DNA of 14,204 nt from Candidatus Hermodarchaeota archaeon (GCA_048885535.1 JBHLLO010000077.1:1-14204), one strand, 5' to 3'. Shown: positions 3 to 14,204, numbered from the stretch's first letter. Notes: generated by a model from the sequence alone, not told the origin. Numbers and translations are program-made.

Positions 3-3000
3 TATTATATAGATACCTATAGCGTTGGAGATTATGTTCGTTTTTATATCTCAATTTCAAACCTACAGAAAACTAAAACATATGAGATTGCATATACGCA
101 ATCAGCTACTTTAGGCGATGGAGATGCTGGGAGTATTAGTAATTTAGCTCAACAGTTCATGTCTACTGTTTCTCAAACAGATTTAATTTATTATATATCG
201 TCTGTACTAGATACAGACTATAGAAATTTTACTTTAATAGCTGGTATCAGATTTAACTGTGAAGATAATCTTGCCACACAATTTGATCTTGATGATTTTG
301 ATAGAGCAGTTATTAATTCAGTTAATTTAACTTTTACTTACGAAAAAACAATAGATCAGCTTTCTTCTATTTCTTTTGAACAAGTAGGAGATAGACCTAA
401 TGATCTTAGTAGTAATACTATTGTAGTTAATGAAGCAATTCTCAATTTTCAATATAAAATTAATGATACTTGGCCCACTGATTCTCCAAATTCAGAATTT
501 AGAATTTTAATTAATGGAATTCAACATTCAGAAACCGTTAAGCTAAGCAGTGCTATAACAACATTTAAAGATGCGAAAACTGGGGGATTCGATGTCACTT
601 ATTTAATAGACGAAAATAAAAACGTTAATCTTTCGCTTCAAGTCTATCTTGCAGATCAATTCAACTTAAATCGGATTATTAAGATTTCAATAGATAATGT
701 TTACCTTAATATTACATATACTGAGATTATTGAAGATATCGAAACAAGGAGCGAGCTATATCTAAATAGCGATAATAAAACTCTTGATCCTGTTATCTCA
801 ATTCCTTTAGGAGAAAGTTTGAATATAACAATAAAATATTTGGATAATGAAACAGGAAATCACATTTCAGGAGCAACAGTTAATTTAGAAGGGAAGGTTT
901 CTGGAGTTTTAACTGAAGATCCTGGCTCTGAACAATATTATAGGATCATTAATACAAATGATTTAGGAATAGGTGTTAAAACTCTAACTGTAGTGGCAGA
1001 AAAGTTAGATTATGAAACTAAAACCATTCCTTTTTTTGTCGAGGTAACTGAAAGAGAAACTGAATTACTTTTGTTTTTAGATGGTATTCCAAAAAATGAT
1101 GGTGATACTATCCAAGTAAAAGCCAATGAATTGATAAACGTGACAGTTTATTATAGAGATAATATAACCAAGCAATTTCTTAGTGGAGCAACTGTAACTT
1201 TATTAGGAATTGGAAATTTAGATGAAGCACCAGGACATTATAATTATACTATAGATACGGATGATTTGGGTCAAGGAATTACTGCTTTTACCGTTTTTGC
1301 ACAGTTAGAAGACTTTAAGCCTCAAAGCGTTCGATTTTTTGTTGAATTAATTGAAAGAGAAACTGAATTGCTATTATATTTAGATGATGTTCCAAAAAAT
1401 GATAAGGATAAAATTATAGTCAATATTGATGAATTCATAAATGTGACGGTATATTATAGAGATGATATAACCAAACAACTTCTTAGTGGTGCAACAATAA
1501 CTCTAGTGGGAATAGATAATCTAACAGAAACAGCTAGTTATTATAATATCACTATAAATACTAATGATCTAAATCCTGGAATTACTGTATTTACTATATT
1601 TGCGCAGTTGGCCAACTATCGCGCTCAAAGTATTCAATTTTTTGTTGAATTGGTTGAAAAAGACACAGAATTACTACTCTTTTTAAATGGGGTTCAAAAA
1701 GTTGATAAGGATAAAGTTGATATTCAAGTTGATGATACTATCAATGTGACGGTATATTATAGAGATGATATAACCAAACAACTTCTTAGTGGTGCAACAA
1801 TAACTCTAGTGGGAATAGATAATCTAACTGAAACAGCTAGTCATTATAATATAACCATCGATATAAATGACTTAGATCCTGGAATAACCGTTTTAACAAT
1901 TTTTGCACAATTAGATAATTACCAACCCCAAAGTATTCAATTTTTTGTTGAGATAGTAGAAAAGGAAACAGAATTACTTTTATTTTTGGATAGCAAACCA
2001 AAAAATGATGGTGATAAAATTCAAGTTGAAGTGAATGAATATATAAATGTAACAGTATATTATAGAGATAATGTAACAAAGCAGTTTCTTAACGGTGCAA
2101 CTGTTACTTTAGTAGGAAGAGGTGACTTTAGTGAAACAGGAGGGCATTATAATTTCACCGTAAACACCAATGATTTACTCCGAGGAATTACTGTTTTAAC
2201 AATATTTGCACAATTAGATAATTACCAACCTCAAAGTATTCAATTCTTTGTCGAAGTAGTCGAAAGGGATTCAAATTTAACACTATTTTTAGGAATTGAT
2301 GACATTACTCCTGATCCAGTCATAGAAGTATCAATTGGTGCTATACTAAATTTGATAGTGTTATATACTGATAATCAAACTGGTCTTCCTATTAGCGGAG
2401 GAACAGTGCAACTGATAGGGGAGGGTTTAGTGCTTAATTTCACAGCAGATATTGGTCAATATTATTTAATTCTTGATACACGTGATTTAGAGATTAGAGT
2501 AAATCTTTTTACTATTGTGGCTCAAGCAAACAACTTTCAAATTAAAACCATAGATTTAAGAATTACTGTTAACAGAATAAAGATAATGCCTAGTACATAT
2601 TCGGGAGAATCTTATCTAACTGGATTAGAAGGGGGTCAAGTAACACTACAAATTATATTAAATAACACAAGTTTACTTCCTTACGGAGAACTCATTAAAA
2701 ATGCGAATTTGACCTATTCATGGGATTATGGACAGGGAAGGTTCTTGGAAAATAATGGTATATATGAAGTAGATTTAGATCTAAATGTACCAGCGGGAAC
2801 ATATACTATAAGAATATATGTTCAAGATGAGTTTACCGATTATGTTTTTGAATATAATTCTGAAAATGGTCATGTGATATCATTGATTGTCAATGCAAGA
2901 CAAGGGTTAGATTTGACATTGTTACTCATTATTTTGTCTGCTGGTATAATAGGTCTTGTAACAGCTTTTGGTTTATATCAGAAACACTATAAGTATCCTC

Positions 3001-3197
3001 CATTGGTGAGAAAATTAAGAAAATTAAGGAAACAGATTAAAAAGGGGAAGAAAGTAAAACCAAAAGGATTTAGTAATCGAGAAAATATAACAAAGGAACT
3101 TTTTGAGGGGCAATTCCAGGAATTAAAACCAATAAAGTCTGAAAAAGGTTTCAAAGTCCAAGAAAATCCTAAAATTGAACAAAAAGGAGGATTTTAA
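3..3197 (+). CDS. Large membrane-anchored cell-surface glycoprotein with tandem beta-rich (Ig-like) repeats; 5'-partial
   Basis: The frame is open from base 3 (YYIDTYSVGDYVRF...), so ATG 159 is probably internal. It has about 6-7 beta-rich repeats of ~100 aa and many N-x-T/S sequons. A single C-terminal hydrophobic helix (LTLLLIILSAGIIGLVTAFGLY, ~2913-2978) is followed by a basic tail (YPPLVRKLRKLRKQIKKGKK). Confidence 0.88.
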   Translation, partial: YYIDTYSVGDYVRFYISISNLQKTKTYEIAYTQSATLGDGDAGSISNLAQQFMSTVSQTDLIYYISSVLDTDYRNFTLIAGIRFNCEDNLATQFDLDDFDRAVINSVNLTFTYEKTIDQLSSISFEQVGDRPNDLSSNTIVVNEAILNFQYKINDTWPTDSPNSEFRILINGIQHSETVKLSSAITTFKDAKTGGFDVTYLIDENKNVNLSLQVYLADQFNLNRIIKISIDNVYLNITYTEIIEDIETRSELYLNSDNKTLDPVISIPLGESLNITIKYLDNETGNHISGATVNLEGKVSGVLTEDPGSEQYYRIINTNDLGIGVKTLTVVAEKLDYETKTIPFFVEVTERETELLLFLDGIPKNDGDTIQVKANELINVTVYYRDNITKQFLSGATVTLLGIGNLDEAPGHYNYTIDTDDLGQGITAFTVFAQLEDFKPQSVRFFVELIERETELLLYLDDVPKNDKDKIIVNIDEFINVTVYYRDDITKQLLSGATITLVGIDNLTETASYYNITINTNDLNPGITVFTIFAQLANYRAQSIQFFVELVEKDTELLLFLNGVQKVDKDKVDIQVDDTINVTVYYRDDITKQLLSGATITLVGIDNLTETASHYNITIDINDLDPGITVLTIFAQLDNYQPQSIQFFVEIVEKETELLLFLDSKPKNDGDKIQVEVNEYINVTVYYRDNVTKQFLNGATVTLVGRGDFSETGGHYNFTVNTNDLLRGITVLTIFAQLDNYQPQSIQFFVEVVERDSNLTLFLGIDDITPDPVIEVSIGAILNLIVLYTDNQTGLPISGGTVQLIGEGLVLNFTADIGQYYLILDTRDLEIRVNLFTIVAQANNFQIKTIDLRITVNRIKIMPSTYSGESYLTGLEGGQVTLQIILNNTSLLPYGELIKNANLTYSWDYGQGRFLENNGIYEVDLDLNVPAGTYTIRIYVQDEFTDYVFEYNSENGHVISLIVNARQGLDLTLLLIILSAGIIGLVTAFGLYQKHYKYPPLVRKLRKLRKQIKKGKKVKPKGFSNRENITKELFEGQFQELKPIKSEKGFKVQENPKIEQKGGF
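1050..2261 (+). repeat. Four intragenic tandem repeats of 303 nt (101 aa), with more diverged copies on both sides (~741-1049, 2262-~2570)
   Basis: Units start E(R/K)(E/D)TELLL at 1050, 1353, 1656 and 1959; the next unit (ERDSNLTL) starts at 2262. Shared motifs are INVTVYYRD.(I/V)TKQ.L.GAT, YN.T(I/V) and GIT..T.FAQL....QS..FFVE. Bases 1440-1525 and 1743-1828 are identical. Confidence 0.95.
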
Positions 3198-4325: not shown

Positions 4326-4349
4326 TTATTTTTGGTGTACCTAAAAAAA

Positions 4350-6296
4350 ATGTCTTTAAAAGAAGATGAATTTAAATCAACTAAACAGGTTCTAGAATTA
4401 ATTGGATTAAGCCAGGAGGAGGTTAATACATATTTTCATCTAACTGGCAGAGGTCCAGTTTTAACTGGAGAAATTGCTCTTTTAATTAATGTTTCTGAAG
4501 AAAAAGCAGCTCAAATAGCCAAAAATTTACTTAACAAAGGTTTAGTAAGAGAAGTTCCCGGGAAAACACCATTCTATGTTGCTCTACCACCTTATACAGC
4601 CTTATTAAACCAAATCGGGCAATTTAAGAACGTTGTAAAAGGGATTCGAGAAACTACTCCTAAAACTTTAGAATTGAAATTTCATGAAATTGAAGAGCAA
4701 TCAGCTAAACTCGGAAAGTTAAATGAATATCGTAATTATATTCATATGATGAAGGAGAATCTACCTGCTCAATTAAAAATTCAATTTAGTAGAATAGAAA
4801 AAGAGTTAGAGAGTGTGAAGAAATTTCAAGAAATCCGGAGTTTTATATTAAATCTGCGAGAGATAGTCCCCGATGAAATCATAAAGGAATTTGGATTAGT
4901 TGAAGATCGGTTAGAAAAGATGAAAGCAGAGATTTCAGATGCTTTTGAAAAACAATTTCGAATTGGGGCATTAAAAAGTATGGCAGAAAAAATAGTATCA
5001 CGAATCATTTCAGAACAGTTCATAGATTTAACTGATTATTTTAAAGAAAAGTTTGTAAAGGCAATTGAAAATACTCTTGATCAAGTAACTAATCAGCTTG
5101 CAACAATTTCTGATGCTGCAGGAGAGATGACTACAGATCTGGGAGATACTTTCACTGATATTGAAGGAAGATTAAGAGATACTTTAGAAGATTTAGATAA
5201 ACGTATTTCTTCAGTCTATGAGGATGTAGACAAGGGTATTGAAGAGTTAAAACAAATGTTCCAAAAAGAGATATATAATACTCTTGAAGAAGATATAATG
5301 CTAAGTATTATTAAGCAACTAGATTTATCAGAAGATACCATGACAGAATTTTTTGAGCGATCAAAGAGAGCTTCGATGTTATCATATAGAGATGTTTGGT
5401 TTGTAAGAAGTATTGAAGGAATGAAAGCACAAATCAATGAAACTTTAACACGTGTAAAAATGAGAGTCCATATAATTGCACCTAGTTTAGATGATATAGA
5501 TATTGTTGCAATCTCAAATGTAAAGAAACATATAAACGTGAGAATATCAACTAATTTTGATTGGAATAATAATAATCATAAAAATATACTTGCTCAAATC
5601 TTAAAATATCCTAATATAAGTATCCGTCATTATCCGCGAGAAAACATATATGCAATCAACCGCGATTTTGAAGAATTGGTTGTATGTGCAGTGTCAAAAA
5701 CAGAATTAGAAGATTTTGAGATAGCCGGAATGGGTTCCATAATCGAAGAGCATGTTAAATTATTCGCTGGCGTTCTTGAGGAGGTTTGGATGCAAGCAAA
5801 GAAAGTTAGTGATGAAGAAATTAAGTATGCTTTAGGGGCAGATTTTCAATTACCTGCACAAAAAGAAGTTAAACCTGTTATCCCCAAAACCACACCCAAG
5901 CCTGTAACTCAATTAAAACCAGAACCATCATATATACCAAAAAAAGTTGAACCACTTAAACAAAAACCTCAAGTTGAAAAAAAACCTCAAATGAAATCTA
6001 AACCCGCTATTGAAGTTCCTAAATCGGGTCCTATAGATTTAGCAGGAAAGTCCATCTTAGAACTATTTACTGAAGTTATAAATAATTTAGATAAGAAAGT
6101 AGGTACTGAAATTTCTTCTGATATTGAATTAATCCGGAATAAGCTTGTGGAAGAAAAAGGATATTCATCAGTCTTAGGACAAATGAGTATTACAATAGCT
6201 TCTCTAAAAATAACCCCTAAATTACTTACTAAATTTGAAATAGAGGAAACCAAGAAAAAGATTCAATTTTGGATGAAAAAGTTAAATATAAAATAA
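4350..6296 (+). CDS. TrmB-like protein: N-terminal wHTH, long helical/coiled-coil insertion, TrmB effector (PLD-like) domain, Pro/Lys linker, C-terminal helical domain
   Basis: LELIGLSQEEVNTYFHLTGRGPVLTGEIA...LLNKGLVREVPGKTPFYVALPP is a TrmB-type wHTH. VWFVRSIEGMKAQINETLTRVKMRVHIIAP...INRDFEELVV...LEEVWMQAK matches the TrmB middle domain. ATG 4350 is preferred over TTG 4332. Confidence 0.8.
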   Translation: MSLKEDEFKSTKQVLELIGLSQEEVNTYFHLTGRGPVLTGEIALLINVSEEKAAQIAKNLLNKGLVREVPGKTPFYVALPPYTALLNQIGQFKNVVKGIRETTPKTLELKFHEIEEQSAKLGKLNEYRNYIHMMKENLPAQLKIQFSRIEKELESVKKFQEIRSFILNLREIVPDEIIKEFGLVEDRLEKMKAEISDAFEKQFRIGALKSMAEKIVSRIISEQFIDLTDYFKEKFVKAIENTLDQVTNQLATISDAAGEMTTDLGDTFTDIEGRLRDTLEDLDKRISSVYEDVDKGIEELKQMFQKEIYNTLEEDIMLSIIKQLDLSEDTMTEFFERSKRASMLSYRDVWFVRSIEGMKAQINETLTRVKMRVHIIAPSLDDIDIVAISNVKKHINVRISTNFDWNNNNHKNILAQILKYPNISIRHYPRENIYAINRDFEELVVCAVSKTELEDFEIAGMGSIIEEHVKLFAGVLEEVWMQAKKVSDEEIKYALGADFQLPAQKEVKPVIPKTTPKPVTQLKPEPSYIPKKVEPLKQKPQVEKKPQMKSKPAIEVPKSGPIDLAGKSILELFTEVINNLDKKVGTEISSDIELIRNKLVEEKGYSSVLGQMSITIASLKITPKLLTKFEIEETKKKIQFWMKKLNIK

Positions 6297-6387: not shown

Positions 6388-7842
6388 ATGAATACTATTT
6401 TAATTTACCCCCAACTTGAATTCACTGGAACACAGATTCCTACTCCTCCTTATTCGATTTTGTTTATTGCAGATTATTTAATCAGCAAAAAAATTGATGT
6501 TCAAGTCTATGACTTGCGATTTGACTCTACATCGAAGGTGATAAGTGCTATATCGGATAAAGGACCAAAGTATATTGGTATATCTGTAATGACAGGACCA
6601 CAAATTAATCATGCGCTTAATATTAGTAATTTAATTAAGGAAGAGTTTAATAATGTTAAAATAGTATGGGGAGGTGTTCATCCTACAATTGTTCCCACCC
6701 AAACTCTTCATAATAGGGCAATAGATTTCGTCATTCGACGAGAAGGTGAGAAATCTTTTTATGAACTCATAACTGGAAAAAATCTAAATCAAATTGAAGG
6801 GCTTTCATTTAAAAAGGATAAGAAAATATATCATAATCCTGATTCTGATTTACTGAATAGTGCAGAATTAAACTCTTTAAGTGTTCCTTGGAATCTAATA
6901 AATCCAAAACACTATGTAAAAAGTGGAACTTACATAAGCATTACTAGTCGAGGTTGTCCTTACCGATGTGCTTTTTGCTATAATACTCTTTTAAATAATG
7001 TATGGAGAGGATGGACAACTGATAAATGTATCGAGGAACTAGATAAGGTTTTAGATTTTGGTGTAAAGAATATAATTTTCTACGATGATAACTTTTTTGC
7101 AGATCTTAAACGAGTGAAAACACTTTTTAACTATTTTAAAGAGAAGGAAATAGCATGGAAAGCAGAATTACGTGTCGATAGATTAAATTATTCATTAGCT
7201 AAAGAAGCAAAAGAACATGGTTGTAGTCAAATGTACTTTGGAGCAGAATCAGGGTCACAGAGAATATTAAATGTATTAAACAAAAATATTTCAATAAAAA
7301 ATATAATAAGAAGTGCTAGAATTACTAAGGCTTTAGGAATTAAGGCAGATTATAGTTGGATGATTGGAATTCCAAGTGAAACTAAGAAAGACATCAAAAA
7401 GACTCTAGTTTTAATCAAAAAGACTAAAGAGATTAACCCTGATTGTGAATTTTCTGTAAAAATACTCTTCCCTTATCCTAATACTCCAATTTATGATAAA
7501 GCAATACGCATGGGATTTAATCCACCATCTAATCTCGTTGATTGGGGAAAAATTCGAAGGGAAAGGGCTCAAAGGTATTTGAAGCATAGAAAATTACTTG
7601 AAATGATCTCAATTACTAGCGCAATTGTTGGTAAAAAAGTTTTTGAACAAGAAAATGTACCAATATTTAAACTAATTAAAACCCCAGCAAAAATTAGATG
7701 GAAAAAAGAATTTTTCGGCGCAGGAATTGAAAACATCTTATTTAAAATCTTTCGAAATATTATTGAAAAAAGAATTAGTAGTAAAGAATCTAAAGAATAT
7801 GACCCTTTTTCTCAAAAGTTTATATTTAAGAAGCAGAATTAG
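6388..7842 (+). CDS. Cobalamin (B12)-binding domain radical SAM protein (class B methyltransferase/BchE-like)
   Basis: N-terminal B12-binding motifs (PPYSILFIADYL, IGISVMTG, IVWGGVHPT, DFVIRREGE), then TSRGCPYRCAFC (CxxxCxxC), FYDDNFF, FGAESGSQRIL, MIGIPSET and PYPNTPIY. Substrate unknown. Confidence 0.93.
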   Translation: MNTILIYPQLEFTGTQIPTPPYSILFIADYLISKKIDVQVYDLRFDSTSKVISAISDKGPKYIGISVMTGPQINHALNISNLIKEEFNNVKIVWGGVHPTIVPTQTLHNRAIDFVIRREGEKSFYELITGKNLNQIEGLSFKKDKKIYHNPDSDLLNSAELNSLSVPWNLINPKHYVKSGTYISITSRGCPYRCAFCYNTLLNNVWRGWTTDKCIEELDKVLDFGVKNIIFYDDNFFADLKRVKTLFNYFKEKEIAWKAELRVDRLNYSLAKEAKEHGCSQMYFGAESGSQRILNVLNKNISIKNIIRSARITKALGIKADYSWMIGIPSETKKDIKKTLVLIKKTKEINPDCEFSVKILFPYPNTPIYDKAIRMGFNPPSNLVDWGKIRRERAQRYLKHRKLLEMISITSAIVGKKVFEQENVPIFKLIKTPAKIRWKKEFFGAGIENILFKIFRNIIEKRISSKESKEYDPFSQKFIFKKQN

Positions 7843-7897: not shown

Positions 7898-8383
7898 TTA
7901 AATTCTCGAGTCACTCGTAGCAGGAACAGTTTCTACTCTATTTCGGTTATAGATTTCAGAAAATATATTAAAGAAATCTGCTTGTCTTTGCCTAAAATGA
8001 ACTTTTTCCTCATGTTTGTTTTGCTGCAATATTAGTAGCCATTTCTTCAATTTGGGATTACCTTTTTTATCGGGTTTATATTGACCTTCCTTAGTACGTA
8101 CGACGACCCATAAAATTATCACTCCTGGTTTCTTTTCCTGTATATTCTGCACATCGTGCCATCGGACCCACTTACTTTTTCCCATAGACATATATGAACC
8201 TCTCATATATGTAACATGAATCCTCCAGGCAAACCCATTGTCAGTCACTACTAAAAAACCATTCTCTTTACTAAGTCTGCATTTTGAAGTAATTATTGGG
8301 TCACCTACATCATCTTGACCCATCATTTTATCATACTTTTCAACTCTATCTTCAGAAACCTCCCAACCTTCCATTATTGGCAT
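7898..8383 (-). CDS. Hypothetical protein, probable PH-like (bPH/GRAM-type) fold
   Basis: 161-aa ORF. GFLVVTDNGFAW ... VRWHDVQNIQEKK, further beta strands and a C-terminal amphipathic helix (DFFNIFSEIYNR) match the PH-superfold pattern. Confidence 0.65.
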   Translation of the reverse strand: MPIMEGWEVSEDRVEKYDKMMGQDDVGDPIITSKCRLSKENGFLVVTDNGFAWRIHVTYMRGSYMSMGKSKWVRWHDVQNIQEKKPGVIILWVVVRTKEGQYKPDKKGNPKLKKWLLILQQNKHEEKVHFRQRQADFFNIFSEIYNRNRVETVPATSDSRI

Positions 8384-8597
8384 ACAAAATCACGTTCTTT
8401 ATTTTTAGAATAATTGGATTTAACTTTTTATTTTTAAAAAATGAATTTTTTGGATAATAATAATTATGTTATATGCTATATTTAATTGTTTTTGATTTCA
8501 ATACAAAAATATTAACATTATTCAAGAATTAATAAGAAATCAATATTGATTATTATATGAAATCAATATTAAATATTATTTTCAAGTCTCTAAAACA

Positions 8598-8638
8598 TGG
8601 CCAGAGTGAGGGGGCGGATTTCCCTCACTCCAGTACCA
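8598..8638 (-). terminator. GC-rich stem-loop at the 3' end of the small-protein operon (terminator or RNA-stabilising hairpin)
   Basis: GAGTGAGGG (8604-8612) and CCCTCACTC (8622-8630) form a perfect 9-bp inverted repeat with a 9-nt loop. The stem can be extended by G-U pairs on the minus strand and is followed there by TGTTTT. It lies ~26 nt after the stop at 8665. Confidence 0.55.
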
Positions 8639-8664
8639 GTTAAAATACGGATATGGAAAAGAAA

Positions 8665-8793
8665 TTAACTTGAAAATATGGCTACCAAGGAATTAATTAA
8701 GAAAATTAAACTTAATACCGCAATAACTATTGTAGCAAACGTAATGACTCCATAACCAATTTTGTATAGTACATCCTTCTGACTCTCATTCAT
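8665..8793 (-). CDS. 42-aa single-pass membrane peptide (not in ORF track)
   Basis: MNESQKDVLYKIGYGVITFATIVIAVLSLIFLINSLVAIFSS*. Its ATG overlaps the upstream TGA (ATGA, 8793-8790), and it contains one clean hydrophobic helix. Confidence 0.7.
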   Translation of the reverse strand: MNESQKDVLYKIGYGVITFATIVIAVLSLIFLINSLVAIFSS

Positions 8794-9134
8794 TTTCTAA
8801 ACTTCACCATCCTGCATCTTGTTTCATTTTTAATGATTACATTAAAAACTACAGTCAAGGCAAAAGCCATCATTATTGACAAACTACTCAATACAAACAA
8901 ATAGTTAGCTAATAGCCGACCAATTACAAATAAGATTAGAAGCAGGCCAAATATGCTTGCTAAGATGATCACACTCTTAATAAGAACGTATGATAAGCTT
9001 TCTTTAGGATCTATCACATCCTCCCTTCTTTGGATGCTGGATTTAGCTTCAGGGATTTTATTTAGAATAGGATAAGGTTTTGACTCCATCACTATGAATG
9101 GTACATAATCTTCCTGAACACATTCTTGGCACAT
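8790..9134 (-). CDS. Small membrane protein with two TM helices and an N-terminal MCxxC
   Basis: 114 aa, starting MCQEC, with two hydrophobic segments (VLIKSVIILASIFGLLLILFVIG; YLFVLSSLSIMMAFALTVVFNVII). SD-like AGGTGG lies upstream. Confidence 0.75.
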   Translation of the reverse strand: MCQECVQEDYVPFIVMESKPYPILNKIPEAKSSIQRREDVIDPKESLSYVLIKSVIILASIFGLLLILFVIGRLLANYLFVLSSLSIMMAFALTVVFNVIIKNETRCRMVKFRK

Positions 9135-9185
9135 GCTTCTTTTCCACCTTTTTTGTAGATGAATTTAAAAAAAAATGAAAAGAGT

Positions 9186-9401
9186 TTAATAATTCCTAAA
9201 TAATCTCATCCCGTAGGAGTTGGTAGCCATCTTTGTCTTAACGTCTTTTATATTCATGTAATACTCGTGTTTATTAGCATAATCTTTTACTCGGCTGAGT
9301 TTTGCCTTAATTTCTTCAATTTTACTGAGCTTTATTTCCTTTCTAACCTCAGGAACCTCAATTAGGATTATTTCCTTTGGTTTCTCTAATATTTGAACCA
9401 T
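9186..9401 (-). CDS. Small basic hypothetical protein (71 aa)
   Basis: ATG-initiated first ORF of the minus-strand unit, with a purine-rich leader and a TATA-like element ~60 nt upstream. Confidence 0.7.
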   Translation of the reverse strand: MVQILEKPKEIILIEVPEVRKEIKLSKIEEIKAKLSRVKDYANKHEYYMNIKDVKTKMATNSYGMRLFRNY

Positions 9402-9460
9402 TTTTCTTTCACTCTTTTTCTGTTTTTTTATTTTTTTTCCTAAAATTTATTAGGATTTTA

Positions 9461-9470
9461 CTTTATTTAT
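9461..9470 (-). promoter_or_regulatory. Putative TATA box for the small-protein operon
   Basis: The minus strand reads ...GAACC-TATAAATAAAG directly after the inverted-repeat element. Confidence 0.45.
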
Positions 9471-9510
9471 AGGTTCGTGCTCCGGACTTTTTACCGAAGT
9501 ACGAACTTCG
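9471..9510. promoter_or_regulatory. Imperfect inverted repeat, putative operator
   Basis: AGGTTCGTGCTCCGG (9471-9485), an 8-nt spacer, then CCGAAGTACGAACTT (9494-9508): 12 of 15 positions are complementary. A nested palindrome CGAAGT-ACGA-ACTTCG spans 9495-9510. The element is a GC-rich island within an AT-rich divergent promoter. Confidence 0.6.
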
Positions 9511-9564
9511 ATTGAACTGCGGATAATGTTCTGAAGTGTAAAGCTTAAAAGGAAGTTTTGATAA

Positions 9565-9575
9565 TTTATATATAA
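9565..9575 (+). promoter_or_regulatory. Putative TATA box for the wH-TPR gene
   Basis: TTTATATATAA lies ~30 nt upstream of the TTG start at 9603, consistent with a short-leader or leaderless archaeal transcript. Confidence 0.5.
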
Positions 9576-9602
9576 GAAGATAGGTATATAAAGTGATAAC
9601 TA

Positions 9603-12557
9603 TTGAGTAATACTAAAGATTTGATATACCCTCCGAATGATATATTAAAACCATCTCTTCTGGAAAAAAATTATGAATTAATAATTCTTTGGATGCTTAA
9701 CAACAATAATTCATGCGGTTGGGCTGATTTTACAGAATATATTAATGAACAATTAATTCCAGAGTCAACTCTTTCAACTTATTTAAAAACCCTAAAAAGA
9801 CAAGGATATTTAGAAAAACCTGAAAGGAATACATATAAAATTACTGTAGATGGTAAAGATCGTTTAAATGAGTTATTGTTCATAAAAGAATCTGGAGGAG
9901 CTGTCTTAAATTATCCTCCAAAAATAATTACTGAAAAGAGGAATTATGATCATTGGATTTTATGGATGTTATATAATAACGAGTCGTGTAGATGGTCTGA
10001 TTTTACTAACTCCCCATTAAGCATAAATCAATCATCATTATCTAAAAATATTAAAGAACTTTTGGATAAGGATTTAATAAAGAATGAAAATAAGGAATAT
10101 ACCATAACTCCACTTGGAAAATCTGAATATTTTAATGTGTTAAGAGAATATGAATTAGATCGTCAATCAATTTTAGAAGAAGAGAGTAAACGTATTCATG
10201 AATTTACTACCTTTACAAACGAATTCTTTAATAAATTTGGAATTGAGGATAATAACATCAAATTTAGATTCCTAAATAACGTCTTAAAATTAAACTATTC
10301 TAAAGTAGAGAACTTATTAGAAGATGAGGAGGATTTCAACAAGATTTTACTATTCCTATCAATTAATCATCCTGATCAATATCCAGATTATTTTTCACCT
10401 GAGCGATTTTCTCATGAATATAGTATTAAAAAAACCACTTTAGATTTTTTTATTGAAAAGATTGTCGAAGAAGAATTCTATGATATAAAATTTTTCAAAT
10501 TTGAGGTTCCTCCAAACAAGGTTTACTATTTCCAATCAAATGAGAAAATCGAACGTCTCTTAAGAGCAATAATTGATGATTATATGACACGTTATACATA
10601 TTTAAATAATTTAAATCAAAATACAACCCAAAATGTACCAGCATTAACAATTTCTAATATAATTGAAAGCATATTAAATGAGATATGTGATCACTTATTT
10701 CATAATAACTTAAAAGATGCTTTAAGAAGATTTTTGCCAGAATATATTCAATATTTAGCATATAAAATTGAAACTGAAAAAAAATTGGGAACAGGGGATT
10801 CAAAATTGGAGAGTTTAATTTGGCAGACAATATCATCAGAATTTGAGACCTTTGCTTCTAGAGGCTCTGAAGACAAGATTGGTGAGAATGAATTGAACTA
10901 TACATTGGATTATCAAGTCTTTGAAGCTTTAAACCTTTTTTACTTAGATAAGTTGAATTATATTGAATATAATAATATCCATAAGGATTTTGAACCTTCA
11001 AATTTAGAACTTCTCAATGAAATTATGCAATTACTTAAAAATGGAGAAATAAATGAGGCTAATAATTTATTTAATGATAATAGTCAGAATTTAAACAAGA
11101 TTGAAAGTCTAATCATTAATGATATTATAAAAACCTCCCAATATAGGTTTGAAGAATCAATTGAAATAACTAACCATTTAATTCAAGGATTTCCCAATAG
11201 TTATATTGGATATTTATTTCAATCAATAACATACTTTTTGTTGGATAATCTAGAAGATTCTTTAAAAGTTATTGAAAAGGGGATAACTAAAGCGTTTGAT
11301 ATTTCATTAATCGCTCAAAAAGCTCAAATCTTAATAAAAAAAGATGAAGAAGAAGAAGGATTAAAAATAATTGAAGAAGCAAATATTAAACATCCAAACA
11401 ATATACTTCTATTACGTACTCAGTTCTTAACGCTTAGTTGTGAGGAAGGTGTCTGTTATAGGTCGCCTGACATACCGTTAAAAGCATTAAATGCTGCAAT
11501 CAAATTAAACCCAATGGATAAAGAGCTTCTAATTTTAAAGGCAGTAATATTATGTATAACTAGGAATTATAAAGAAGCAGAAAAGTTAATTACTGAACAA
11601 ATAGGTCTTAATCTTATACCCAAGAATCCTCGCATTCATAATGCTGCGTTTTTATTATTAGTTTATTCATATATTGCACGTCATAAATTTGAGGAAGCTT
11701 TAGAATTTGCAAATATAGGTGAAACTAGATATCAGGATTCTTCTTTCTCTTTCCTTACGAAAGCCTTTGTCCTTGGTTATTCATTGGTATACAATGGTGA
11801 ATTATCTGAGGTAAACTTAGATAGTTTTAAGGAATATATTGATAAGGCAATTAGCATCGAAAAGAGTAATTTTAATAAAGCCCTTTTTCTACAATCTAAA
11901 GCATACATATTAAGAGAGCAAGGAATCAACGAAGAAGCTCTGGATGCAATTGAAGAGGCGATTCAATTAAATCCAAAACATTATGATTTTTATCAAAGAA
12001 AGATTCAATTAATTATTTCATTGGGGCGGGATAATGAAGCAGTTGGATTAATTGATTCTATGATGAAAGAATTTCCAAAACAAAGACTAAAATTGTATAA
12101 AATAAAGTCATTTTTATATTTCAAACTTCAAGATTATGATACAGGTATAAAAGTTATCGATAAGGTACTTGAGGAATACCCAGATGATAAACATTTACTC
12201 AATAATAAAGTCTATTTATTATTTAAATTAGATAGGGTAGAGAGGGCACTTGAAGCAGCAGAAACATTAATCAATATTGATCCTGAAGATGGTAATTCTT
12301 ACGATACTTTAGGAGAGATGTTAATGGAGATAGGAAAATATGAAGAAGCTCTTGAAAACTTTGAAGAGGCGTTAAAATTGAATCCTTCAGGATGGTATAT
12401 AGTTGATACATATAGGAAAATGAGTATATGTCATGAAAAGCTTGGTAATACTGAGGAAGCTCAAAAGTGGCGCGATAAAATGGAAAGCACTGAACCAAAA
12501 ATGAGTCGCTTCTATAAAGATATGCATGAGAGAACATCTAAAGAAAAAGACCTATGA
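9603..12557 (+). CDS. Tandem winged-helix + tetratricopeptide-repeat protein (putative transcriptional regulator)
   Basis: Two homologous N-terminal wH units: LxYPPxxI...NY..xILWMLxNNxSCxWxDF...S(T/S)LS..(L/I)K.L......Y.IT..GK. The C-terminal half is TPR-like (EEALDAIEEAIQLNPK, ALEAAETLINIDPEDGNSYDTLGEMLMEIGKYEEALENFEEALKLNP). The start codon is TTG. Confidence 0.88.
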   Translation: MSNTKDLIYPPNDILKPSLLEKNYELIILWMLNNNNSCGWADFTEYINEQLIPESTLSTYLKTLKRQGYLEKPERNTYKITVDGKDRLNELLFIKESGGAVLNYPPKIITEKRNYDHWILWMLYNNESCRWSDFTNSPLSINQSSLSKNIKELLDKDLIKNENKEYTITPLGKSEYFNVLREYELDRQSILEEESKRIHEFTTFTNEFFNKFGIEDNNIKFRFLNNVLKLNYSKVENLLEDEEDFNKILLFLSINHPDQYPDYFSPERFSHEYSIKKTTLDFFIEKIVEEEFYDIKFFKFEVPPNKVYYFQSNEKIERLLRAIIDDYMTRYTYLNNLNQNTTQNVPALTISNIIESILNEICDHLFHNNLKDALRRFLPEYIQYLAYKIETEKKLGTGDSKLESLIWQTISSEFETFASRGSEDKIGENELNYTLDYQVFEALNLFYLDKLNYIEYNNIHKDFEPSNLELLNEIMQLLKNGEINEANNLFNDNSQNLNKIESLIINDIIKTSQYRFEESIEITNHLIQGFPNSYIGYLFQSITYFLLDNLEDSLKVIEKGITKAFDISLIAQKAQILIKKDEEEEGLKIIEEANIKHPNNILLLRTQFLTLSCEEGVCYRSPDIPLKALNAAIKLNPMDKELLILKAVILCITRNYKEAEKLITEQIGLNLIPKNPRIHNAAFLLLVYSYIARHKFEEALEFANIGETRYQDSSFSFLTKAFVLGYSLVYNGELSEVNLDSFKEYIDKAISIEKSNFNKALFLQSKAYILREQGINEEALDAIEEAIQLNPKHYDFYQRKIQLIISLGRDNEAVGLIDSMMKEFPKQRLKLYKIKSFLYFKLQDYDTGIKVIDKVLEEYPDDKHLLNNKVYLLFKLDRVERALEAAETLINIDPEDGNSYDTLGEMLMEIGKYEEALENFEEALKLNPSGWYIVDTYRKMSICHEKLGNTEEAQKWRDKMESTEPKMSRFYKDMHERTSKEKDL

Positions 12558-12589
12558 TTAGATTAAATTAAATTAACATTAGTGATGAA

Positions 12590-13240
12590 ATGGGATATAT
12601 ACATATAAAAGAACTTCAAAATAGTGCTAAATTTGGTAGGGTATTACCAATCGATTTTGATAATCAAATTCATTTCTTTCCAACGGAAGAAATATTTAAC
12701 GAAATAAAGGATTATTTTACAAATGAAGGTAGTCCTGACTATATATGGTTGAAGGGAATTAATGATATTAATTATTTTTTTGGATTTAGTCGTCTTCTAA
12801 ATAAAATAAAAGAAACCTTTCCAATGCAAAAAATAGGAGTATATGTAAATTCCTCTTTATTTAACTATGAAAATGTCCGAATATCACTTTTGATATGCGA
12901 TTTAGTTGTAATTAATTTAAACTCAGTTAATCCTTCAAATTTCCATAAAGCTTGTGCTTGTTCTGAGGATACTAATGTTCAAGATATTTTGAACGGGATT
13001 AAATTATTTAGAAATGACTTTAAAGGAACTTTTAGTATATTTACAATGTTCTTAAAAGATATCAATGATAATTTGAATGATGTAATAGATTTAAGGAAAT
13101 TTCTATTAGAAGTGAAACCAGATCATTTTTCGGTAAATGTATTTACAGGAAAAGGATTTGAGTCAATTTCTGATGAATTTAAGGATAAAGTTAAGGATAC
13201 CCTAAATAATCTTCCCTTTGAAGTGTCATTTACATTCTAA
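12590..13240 (+). CDS. Degenerate radical-SAM-fold protein (COG0731-like) lacking the CxxxCxxC motif
   Basis: SAKFGRVLPID, FFPTEEI, PDYI, VYVNSSL...VR..L..CDLV...L, ILNGIKLFRNDFKG and MFLKDIND are collinear with the SRRLGxSLGI-type radical SAM family as recalled. The three-Cys loop and GEP motif are absent. Confidence 0.7.
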   Translation: MGYIHIKELQNSAKFGRVLPIDFDNQIHFFPTEEIFNEIKDYFTNEGSPDYIWLKGINDINYFFGFSRLLNKIKETFPMQKIGVYVNSSLFNYENVRISLLICDLVVINLNSVNPSNFHKACACSEDTNVQDILNGIKLFRNDFKGTFSIFTMFLKDINDNLNDVIDLRKFLLEVKPDHFSVNVFTGKGFESISDEFKDKVKDTLNNLPFEVSFTF

Positions 13241-13385: not shown

Positions 13386-13715
13386 ATGAAATTGTTTCAA
13401 GCTCGTTCTAATAGAAAAATCTTGAAAAAATTAAGTTCAAAGTTCCCCAAAATTAAAGAAGCAATAATTGTATCAGATGAAGGGATGCCCCTTAATTCAA
13501 CGCTTTCTCAGGAGATTGAACACGTCAAAATTGCGGGAATAACACTGGCAATTTTATCAGCTGCTAAAAGACTAATTTCTGAGACAAAAAATGGCAATTT
13601 TAAGCAGCTTTCTATTAAAAGTTCTGAAGGTTATCTAATTGGTTATTGGTTGAGTAGTAAAAAGCTATTATTTATTGTATCCCCCGAAGAACTAGCTCTT
13701 GATTCGATATTTTGA
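13386..13715 (+). CDS. Roadblock/LC7 (MglB-like) domain protein, apparently C-terminally truncated by TGA
   Basis: IKEAIIVSDEGMPLNSTL...KIAGITLAILSAAKRLISETKNGNFKQLSIKSSEGYLI is the Roadblock signature. The frame stays open for 15 codons after the TGA, up to TAG at 13761-13763. Confidence 0.88.
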   Translation: MKLFQARSNRKILKKLSSKFPKIKEAIIVSDEGMPLNSTLSQEIEHVKIAGITLAILSAAKRLISETKNGNFKQLSIKSSEGYLIGYWLSSKKLLFIVSPEELALDSIF

Positions 13716-13857: not shown

Positions 13858-14204
13858 ATGGCTAAAAAAGCTGATTATTATAAAATTCTGGGTATTAAGG
13901 AAGATGCTACTGAAGAAGAGATTAAAAAAGCATATCGTAAATTAGCGAAAAAGTACCATCCTGACCTCAATAAGACTGATCCAGATGCCAAGGAGAAATT
14001 TATAGAATTAAAAGAAGCTTATGATATATTGAATGATCCTATAAAACGCAGAATTTATGATCAATCTGGGTATAATCCTCGAAACATTGACATGAGTGAA
14101 ATTTTTAGGAACTATGACTTCATCCAAATAAGAGAGATTCTTAGAGAAATATTTGGTATAAATTATAGAAATGAGTATCATAAACCTCCACCAGAAGGTA
14201 TGTA
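13858..14204 (+). CDS. J-domain (DnaJ-domain) protein, 3'-partial (not in ORF track)
   Basis: [71 protein letters not shown]... contains the HPD motif. No G/F-rich region follows, and the ORF runs off the window end. Confidence 0.95.

Follow-up and report, generated by a model that had tools for sequence, protein, structure and literature searches.

The locus described here raises the question of whether an archaeal DNA-binding protein that carries a large tetratricopeptide repeat (TPR) domain takes its input from the product of a small gene encoded beside it. Asgard archaea are the closest prokaryotic relatives of eukaryotes, and gene regulation in these organisms is almost unstudied. The region in question occupies positions 8598–12557 of a 14,204-nt stretch of DNA from Candidatus Hermodarchaeota archaeon (GCA_048885535.1 JBHLLO010000077.1:1-14204; the whole stretch is hereafter called the window), and its core is a 984-amino-acid (aa) regulator (9603–12557, + strand, TTG start) that stands head-to-head with a 71-aa open reading frame (ORF; 9186–9401, − strand) across a gap of 201 nt (9402–9602). 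The initial annotation of the window likened this arrangement to bacterial RRNPP circuits. We find that the winged-helix (wH)/TPR protein, the divergent small ORF and an operator of repeats do form a recurrent module, and that cell-to-cell signalling by the RRNPP route is unlikely, given that no signal or SHP-like peptide is present. We consider it moderately probable that the protein is a one-component regulator that regulates the operon in which it is encoded as well as the small-protein transcript diverging from it, and that the small protein is an intracellular feedback partner of the TPR domain.

The regulator family and its small-protein partner

The N-terminal part of the regulator has weak wH matches in Pfam over residues 26–174 (HTH_45, 27.7 bits against a cut-off of 25.5; HTH_34 and MarR, both below their cut-offs), NCBIfam adds a match to the Sso10a-family wH, and the C-terminal part has strong TPR matches at about residues 690–966. 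An AlphaFold2 model built on 29 relatives (predicted local distance difference test (pLDDT), 81.8) contains two wH domains (wH1, 24–97; wH2, 115–182), a third wH-like unit (217–311), a linker of long helices (314–417) and a TPR superhelix (468–983), and the succession of elements at 24–80 and 115–168 (H-H-H-E-E, that is, three helices and two strands) is that of a wH fold. The duplicated N-terminal wH domains and C-terminal TPRs recognized in the initial annotation are thus found both by Pfam and in the model. Neither Pfam nor NCBIfam detects an HTH_3/XRE domain in the regulator, in which only winged-helix families are matched, and a Foldseek search with the whole model retrieved just generic TPR scaffolds (subunits of the anaphase-promoting complex/cyclosome (APC/C) and OGT). 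In the alignment of the 29 relatives, the invariant columns lie nearly all in the N-terminal half (1–403), the TPR half being variable.

Among 400 genomes of the phylum, the N-terminal 408 residues find matches in 155; those with E < 1e-100 are confined to one family (f1) and to a single genome (G130) of a sister family (f2). Any N-terminal match is found in 108 of the 134 f1 genomes, and most f1 genomes hold at least two to four copies of the regulator (at most four were scored per genome), which comes in size classes of about 640, 840 and 990 aa. At least 1080 database proteins are related to it, under source names such as ‘tetratricopeptide repeat protein’, ‘hypothetical protein’ or, from JGI, ‘TPR repeat protein/DNA-binding ... 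transcriptional regulator’, and the named relatives among the matches listed all come from metagenome-assembled genomes (MAGs) labelled Promethearchaeota, Lokiarchaeota or other Asgard groups. We found no description of a wH/TPR regulator family in the literature searched, the coverage of which leaves out subscription journals. Judged from these matches, the regulator family is large, multi-paralogue, lineage-specific and previously unnamed.

The divergent neighbour of the regulator was followed through the 30 loci with the N termini most similar to that of the window’s regulator, and at least 700 nt of upstream DNA is included in 28 of these. An ORF of 69–102 aa belonging to the family of the 71-aa protein lies 166–230 nt upstream on the other strand in 22 of the 28 (three of these 22 with a hidden Markov model (HMM) E-value of only 4e-4 to 3e-3, and one called by eye), and in the window’s own genome both of the regulators are paired with a small protein of their own, the second pair (contig C93) being made up of an 846-aa regulator and an 86-aa protein. 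Members share the N terminus MVQ(V/I)LEK (MVQ/MAQ(V)LEK), a K/E-rich middle and an AKxHEExIxIxKVK helix; in their alignment (A1), the N-terminal part is conserved and variation is greatest in the aromatic/Gly tail at the C terminus. A profile made from A1 matched 86 of the 400 genomes (that is, 84/134 of f1, 1/1 of f2 and the window’s own genome) and had no match in 265 other genomes of the 400. All 216 database proteins that match this profile are named ‘hypothetical’ and are without Pfam domains, and clustering of the small proteins at 50% identity yields 90 clusters, all of 51–125 aa and with no fusions. One further ORF, beside a regulator in locus L059 (MTQAFEK...), resembles a distant member of the family and was missed by the HMM.

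No annotated family accounts for the small protein: Pfam gave no shared family, no ribbon–helix–helix and no DNA-binding family for any of the 26 aligned members (E up to 1), NCBIfam gave nothing for the 71-aa protein or for two other proteins of the window (114 and 161 aa), and a search of the ESM Atlas for look-alikes of the 71-aa protein returned no usable match. From its recurrence and profile, the 71-aa protein is best described as a member of a new family and as the constant divergent partner of the regulator; the module as a whole, by the same genome comparisons, is self-contained and specific to one Asgard (Promethearchaeota-labelled) lineage. There is no hydrophobic stretch in the 71-aa protein or in its 25 aligned relatives (maximum Kyte–Doolittle 19-residue mean, ≤ 1.08), all of which carry many charged residues, and a secreted pheromone of the RRNPP type is therefore unlikely; with 16 K/R and 10 D/E residues, the 71-aa protein is predicted to be cytoplasmic, that is, made and kept in the cell.

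The operator array and the co-variation of modules

The gap between the two genes contains an operator array flanked by two promoter-like elements, and this layout is conserved in an alignment of 24 upstream regions (A3). On the side of the small gene, near-invariant or invariant columns of A3 correspond to an element at 9461–9472 (CTATAAATAAAG on the − strand (CTTTATTTATAG)), the position of which suggests that it is the TATA box of the small-protein promoter. On the side of the regulator, a conserved block at 9538–9552 (+ strand; GTAAAGCTTAAAAGG) is probably the regulator’s B recognition element (BRE)/TATA box, and a Shine–Dalgarno-like AGTGAT (9592–9597, + strand) comes before the TTG start. 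The array lies between the two (9473–9537, no strand), with half-sites GCTCC at 9479, ACTTT at 9486, GAAGT at 9496, ACTTC at 9505, GAACT at 9514, GTTCT at 9528 and GAAGT at 9533, and with a near-palindrome (CGAAGTACGAACTTCG) at 9495–9510. Across A3 the blocks run in the order small-ORF start, Shine–Dalgarno-like GTGAT, CTTAATTTTA, ATATATAG(A/G)TTC (that is, the small gene’s TATA box on the − strand), the array with the consensus ACTTC..ACTTC..GAAGTTC..ACTTT..GAAGTG, and, on the + strand, AAAG(C/T)TTA(T/A)A(T/A)A (that is, the regulator’s BRE/TATA); the window’s clade has about 20 extra bases with one more GAAGT/ACTTC pair.

The initial annotation had singled out a ‘striking’ inverted repeat beside the TATA box. 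The repeat is present (arms 9473–9485 and 9494–9506, 11/13 matched, 8-nt spacer), directly adjoins the TATA-like element at 9461–9472 and consists of two half-sites of the conserved array plus their flanks. Alone it is weak and no more than modestly unusual, in that an equally good one turns up in 38 of 500 sequences made by dinucleotide shuffling of the 201-nt gap, and the window holds twelve overlapping 11/13 placements (about eight distinct sites), of which the repeat at 9473–9506 is the richest in G:C pairs. It owes its weight to conservation across loci and not to its own score.

Several counts set the array apart from background. ACTTCG/CGAAGT is enriched 14.7-fold and occurs in 26 of 40 upstream regions; at least three ACTYC/GRAGT sites per 62 nt are found in 27 of 48 operators as against 0.56% of random windows, and the spacing between half-sites is most often 9 nt. 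In the organism’s own 3.09-Mb genome only two places have at least four sites per 70 nt, one of them being 9496–9556 and the other, on contig C19, a run of direct GAAGT repeats, so that the genome-wide operator search for a regulon yielded no clusters of at least four sites beyond these two. The arrangement GAAGT-N4-ACTTC has nine copies in the genome against about 3.7 expected, two of them at the genome’s two regulator genes and most others inside open frames. Regulators of other size classes have different palindromes at the same place (for example, GAACTCC-N3-GGAGTC). As the array sites are upstream of both TATA boxes, their position fits either direction of regulation, that is, activation or the occlusion of TATA-binding protein (TBP)/transcription factor B (TFB). 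Elsewhere in the genome, contig C14 (~11430–11470) carries GATATATAGTTTGAAATTTTGAACTTCACTTGAAGTT, in which a TATA-like element is combined with a perfect palindrome made of the operator half-site; the intergenic gap that contains it precedes a TrmB-like wH/coiled-coil gene similar to the one for a 654-aa protein in the window.

The relationship between the parts of the module was examined by partial Mantel tests on 54 assembled regulator/small-protein pairs, 48 of which have an operator anchor and give the following values. Operator similarity correlated with that of the N-terminal half when the TPR half was controlled for (r = 0.47, p = 0.001), and with the TPR half hardly at all when the N-terminal half was controlled for (r = 0.01, p = 0.321); the small protein correlated with the TPR half (r = 0.60, p = 0.001, controlling for the N-terminal half) and weakly with the N-terminal half (r = 0.15, p = 0.001, controlling for TPR). 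For the 25 long forms, the four values in the same order are 0.42, 0.05, 0.68 and −0.07. In these comparisons, operator similarity tracks the winged-helix half and small-protein similarity tracks the TPR half. That divergent small ORFs and a repeat operator recur and co-vary with the wH/TPR homologues, a point which the initial annotation proposed to check, is borne out by the 22 of 28 loci, the array in A3 and the Mantel tests. The window’s regulator is itself a mosaic: residues 1–180 are 72–83% identical to the regulators of genomes G239 and G232 and 44–65% identical to one of those in G261 (G261a), whereas residues 421–720 are 52–77% identical to G261a and 30–52% identical to G239 and G232.

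A putative feedback circuit and its alternatives

We suggest that the N-terminal wH domains bind the ACTTC/GAAGT half-sites, mostly 9 nt apart, over the ~65 nt between the back-to-back TATA boxes, and that the regulator would thereby control both its own operon (that is, itself and a radical S-adenosylmethionine (SAM)-like protein that lacks the iron–sulfur cluster motif) and the divergent small-protein transcript, which in the window may run on, probably attenuated at a run of nine T residues, into two small membrane proteins. Input would be received by the TPR superhelix at the C terminus. The 71-aa protein would most likely be a target of the regulator and, at the same time, its feedback partner (an anti- or co-regulator), in contact with the TPR half perhaps via its variable aromatic/Gly C-terminal tail. 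In its general wH type, its predicted sites beside BRE/TATA and its likely autoregulation, the protein resembles archaeal wH one-component regulators (MarR/PadR/TrmB/HxlR-like); it differs from them in having three wH-like units in one chain together with ~13 TPR pairs, in occurring in forms of ~640, 840 and 990 aa, in Pfam scores near or below cut-offs and in having no sequence relative of solved structure.

Several observations weigh against this proposal. The wH scores in Pfam are around or under the curated cut-offs, and a sequence search of the PDB with the N-terminal 408 aa gave 0 matches (E up to 1). The small ORF is absent in 6 of the 28 loci, one of which keeps a truncated remnant that can be read in the upstream sequence, and the AlphaFold2 model of the 71-aa protein (an extended N-terminal segment and helices 25–48 and 51–69) is of low confidence (pLDDT, 61). 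The Mantel tests are confounded, in that the loci are kin and 40 of them were picked because both genes were present; the TPR half and the small protein both evolve fast, and their correlation could come from rate alone; and the anchor rule mis-registered the operator segment in some loci. The match between modules is also not clean for the window itself: its TPR half is closest (61%) to that of G261a, a regulator with no small protein beside it; between its small protein and that of the second G261 regulator (G261b) identity is 84.5%, as against just 50% for the TPR halves (for G239, the two values are 43% and 45%); and the identity of its operator to those of G239, G232 and G261b is alike (71, 68 and 69%). 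Structure prediction of a complex between regulator residues 190–984 and the 71-aa protein (both given as alignments) returned a score of 0.00, that is, no answer, and weighs neither way on binding.

The module is of interest on several counts: its regulator family is large and lineage-specific, its operator code is readable, its constant small partner is one that automatic annotation leaves ‘hypothetical’, it includes a conserved cluster-less radical-SAM-like protein, and sister subfamilies link the regulator to small-GTPase and Roadblock loci. A protein fragment, 90 bp of DNA and the 71-aa protein would make a cheap test system for the coupling of a TPR sensor to transcription in archaea and for small proteins as internal ligands. 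A wider scenario, which we put forward only tentatively and regard as rather doubtful, is that of an expanded modular receptor family in which the TPR sensor co-diversifies with an intracellular small-protein ligand and the wH part with the operator, modules having been shuffled between paralogues for new combinations of input and output. Such a family would parallel the RRNPP pherotype systems, but in archaea and inside the cell, with a dead radical-SAM-like third component and, in some subfamilies, wiring to Ras-like GTPases and Roadblock proteins.

SinI/SinR and lambda cI/Cro are small antagonist/regulator pairs and divergent switches, and the locus is like them in having a small intracellular protein beside the regulator and divergent promoters with a common multi-site operator. 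In a switch of the cI/Cro type, the small basic protein would itself bind DNA and compete or cooperate with the wH/TPR protein at the shared operator, a role with which its K-rich composition and its extended N-terminal segment followed by two predicted helices (25–48 and 51–69) would be compatible. We consider this improbable, as none of the 26 members matches a DNA-binding family (E up to 1), the model of the small protein is of low confidence, and similarity among the small proteins goes with the TPR half rather than with the operator (for the latter, r = 0.55 overall and r = 0.38 within the long subfamily). The small protein is also dissimilar to the regulator, unlike SinI, and is without a recognisable DNA-binding fold, unlike Cro, and the very large TPR sensor of the regulator distinguishes the locus from both systems.

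A second alternative concerns the 216-aa radical-SAM-like ORF that lies 32 nt past the regulator’s stop codon (12590–13240, + strand) and is probably co-transcribed with the regulator. A gene of this kind (216–232 aa) stands 3′ of long-form regulators in 12 of 13 complete loci, at a distance of 18–105 nt, and in 17 of 17 further loci (29/30 in all), and in those 29 copies about 20 residues including the CxxxCxxC motif are gone; the window copy is without all three cluster cysteines and reaches 24.6 bits with PF04055 against a cut-off of 29.5, the intact paralogues scoring 63–68 bits. The TIM-barrel-like core of the 216-aa protein aligns with these intact CxxxCxxC paralogues, from which, as from small activase-like enzymes of the radical SAM superfamily, the long-form partners differ in the loss of this stretch. 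Because they are conserved despite the loss of the motif, the cluster-less copies probably have a non-catalytic role, and the 216-aa protein probably serves, as a pseudoenzyme, in regulation or binding. Intact enzymes are found 3′ of the ~840–870-aa forms of genus g1 (L012, L044, L068, L084 and L085).

The small protein might accordingly be read as a present or former substrate of the downstream enzyme, with the wH/TPR protein as regulator or scaffold, the enzyme dead in the window and only binding or regulation left. The intact g1 enzymes and the conserved cluster-less copies of the long forms speak for such a relic of a modification pathway, as do the conserved N-terminal part and variable tail of the small protein, which are as in precursor peptides, and a B12-binding radical SAM gene (6388–7842) 1.3 kb away. 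We nevertheless give it as little credence as the cI/Cro-type switch: the window copy has lost its cluster cysteines and scores below the cut-off, the intact relatives fit no specific maturase family (best NCBIfam score, 46 bits against cut-offs > 130), no SPASM or RRE domain is present, and the g12 ~840-aa and the ~640-aa forms have a small protein nearby with no radical SAM gene in the DNA examined.

It is very unlikely that the protein is not a transcription factor at all but a wH and TPR scaffold tied to the Asgard small-GTPase/Roadblock network, the intergenic repeats serving some other factor. Roadblock/LC7 genes do lie 3′ of the regulator in the window and near relatives (L045, L048, L050, L054 and L055), Ras-family GTPases flank ~640- and ~830-aa forms (L059 6138-8695; also L054, L055 and L060-L062), L059 carries the unit ‘small ORF then GTPase’ twice, and in structure the TPR part comes closest to APC/C scaffold subunits and OGT. 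However, these structural matches are generic, the wH matches are to DNA-binding families and not to the wH of ESCRT-II type, and the repeats sit exactly between the regulator’s TATA and its partner’s TATA and track the wH half in similarity.

The RRNPP comparison itself can be taken apart into likeness and difference. RRNPP systems (for example, PlcR/PapR, NprR/NprX, Rgg/SHP, ComR/XIP and AimR/AimP) have an N-terminal helix-turn-helix (HTH) domain of the XRE/Cro-C1 type, which is absent in Rap. The present locus is like them in that a DNA-binding domain (N-terminal) and a TPR sensor (C-terminal) are combined in one protein, an adjacent small gene encodes the presumed ligand, and a genome holds many paralogous, diversifying pairs; it is unlike them in the two or three winged helices and ~500-aa TPR superhelix of the regulator, the archaeal host, the charged partner of 70–86 aa without export signal and the co-conserved radical-SAM-like gene. 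Four RRNPP(A) features could be looked for here, and the TPR-type domain alone is present, an XRE HTH, an exported propeptide and homology or occurrence in Bacillota being lacking. No homology to RRNPP(A) was found, the top Foldseek matches being generic TPR scaffolds and the relatives only Asgard-labelled MAG proteins; near the regulators, oligopeptide permeases are represented by just sporadic Opp-like genes in relatives (L046 and L058). Among the papers listed in the literature searched, titles and abstract beginnings yielded no archaeal RRNPP system, and RRNPPA receptors are described, in part of one account, as restricted to Bacillota plus their mobile elements and phages (PMC12700828). 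A looser RRNPP-like logic, in which a DNA-binding domain and a TPR sensor are matched to the product of an adjacent small gene, is still plausible because small-protein similarity tracks the TPR half.

Quorum sensing proper, in which the 71-aa protein, whole or cleaved to a peptide, would be exported, build up outside the cell, be taken in again and be bound by the TPR domain to switch the regulator, seems to us the least likely explanation of all: the recurrent pairing of a DNA-binding domain and TPRs with a small ORF, the tracking of the TPR half by the small protein, the variable tail, an OppC-like permease (L046 1303-2343), a family-5 solute-binding protein (L058 15474-17255) and M3 oligopeptidase (PepF-like) genes adjoining three ~640-aa regulators (L059 3043-4059, L060 2257-4065 and L061 9691-11481) would suit it, but a signal peptide or hydrophobic segment is found in 0 of 26 family members (the window member having the charged composition given above), the neighbourhoods examined share no conserved exporter or processing protease, the transport and peptidase genes occur in just 1–3 loci each and some on the converging strand, the DNA-binding domain is a wH and not HTH_XRE, and the receptors of this type form, in that same partial account, a family of Bacillota, their mobile elements and phages (PMC12700828).

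Membrane ORFs, transcript ends and neighbouring genes

All of the ORFs first recognized (984, 71, 114 and 42 aa) and the 201-nt gap are present, and hydropathy agrees that two of the small products are membrane-embedded: the 114-aa ORF (8790–9134, − strand) has two transmembrane (TM)-like segments and a soluble N terminus, and the 42-aa ORF (8665–8793, − strand), the start of which overlaps the 114-aa stop by 4 nt (ATGA), has a single TM. The idea of a three-ORF partner operon did not survive comparison, as only the 71-aa protein is conserved and the other two ORFs are limited to a few loci (G261, G255, G243 and G270). G261 alone yielded homologues of the two proteins (for the 114-aa one a 122-aa protein, E 5e-10; for the 42-aa one, E 6e-16), and ORFs of 110–115 aa with a like layout in G255, G243 and G270 were judged by eye. 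Other loci hold 32–46-aa zinc-ribbon-like ORFs or nothing, and the ~640-aa class holds Ras-family GTPases, each after a small ORF. On this distribution, the membrane ORFs are variable cargo of the module.

In G261 the window’s arrangement is split over two tandem units, of which one regulator faces the small protein and another faces the TM pair. These paralogous units, which differ in their divergent partner, lie in L045 (G261:C28:310000-326500) and suggest that, compared with the single unit of the window, either a duplication was followed by reciprocal loss or recombination took place. In genus g12, conserved ORFs of 32–46 aa with two CxxC pairs (MKCGKEIKL...C(R/K)xC) come after the small protein (upstream regions of L021, L023, L024, L028, L029, L031, L037, L039 and L040) and are likely to be zinc-ribbon microproteins.

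Oligo-T is an archaeal termination signal. A T9 run read from the sequence (9167–9175, − strand), 11 nt past the stop codon of the 71-aa ORF, is a possible partial terminator between the 71- and 114-aa genes; as it is combined with a Shine–Dalgarno-like GGTGG (9144–9148, − strand) before the 114-aa start, it suggests attenuated read-through into the membrane ORFs. The hairpin that had been noted at the end of the operon is likewise present, as a G+C-rich stem-loop (8598–8640, − strand) that lies at the 42-aa ORF’s 3′ end and precedes a U-rich tract, and is likely to be a transcript-end or stabilising element. Its stem (GAGTGAGG/CCTCACTC) has 11–12 bp and recurs past the 42-aa homologue in G261, and the surrounding 86 nt have a folding energy of −23.5 kcal/mol (z = −2.3; 5 of 200 shuffles equal). 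A scan for bacterial-type terminators did not call the hairpin, and the window had no match in Rfam (E up to 1) or in a tRNA scan, the hairpin and the inverted repeat corresponding to no known RNA family. Ten DNA data sets, four of which contain most of the stretch, were listed for 8400–12700, and no RNA data set.

Of the neighbouring genes, Roadblock/LC7 and DnaJ-domain genes (13386–13715 and 13858–14202) come after the regulator operon in an order shared with G261 (L045), and a 654-aa TrmB-type wH protein with a long coiled-coil region (4332–6296) and the B12-binding radical SAM enzyme (6388–7842) are also syntenic in G261. A 1012-aa protein (159–3197) has only weak, scattered Pfam matches (phage tail tube-like and carboxypeptidase regulatory-like). 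Two tandem 23-nt copies at 8532–8577 (ATAAGAAATCAATATTGATTATT / ATATGAAATCAATATTAAATATT), both partly palindromic, sit ~150–190 nt upstream of the gene for the 161-aa protein (7898–8383, − strand) and are possibly another operator.

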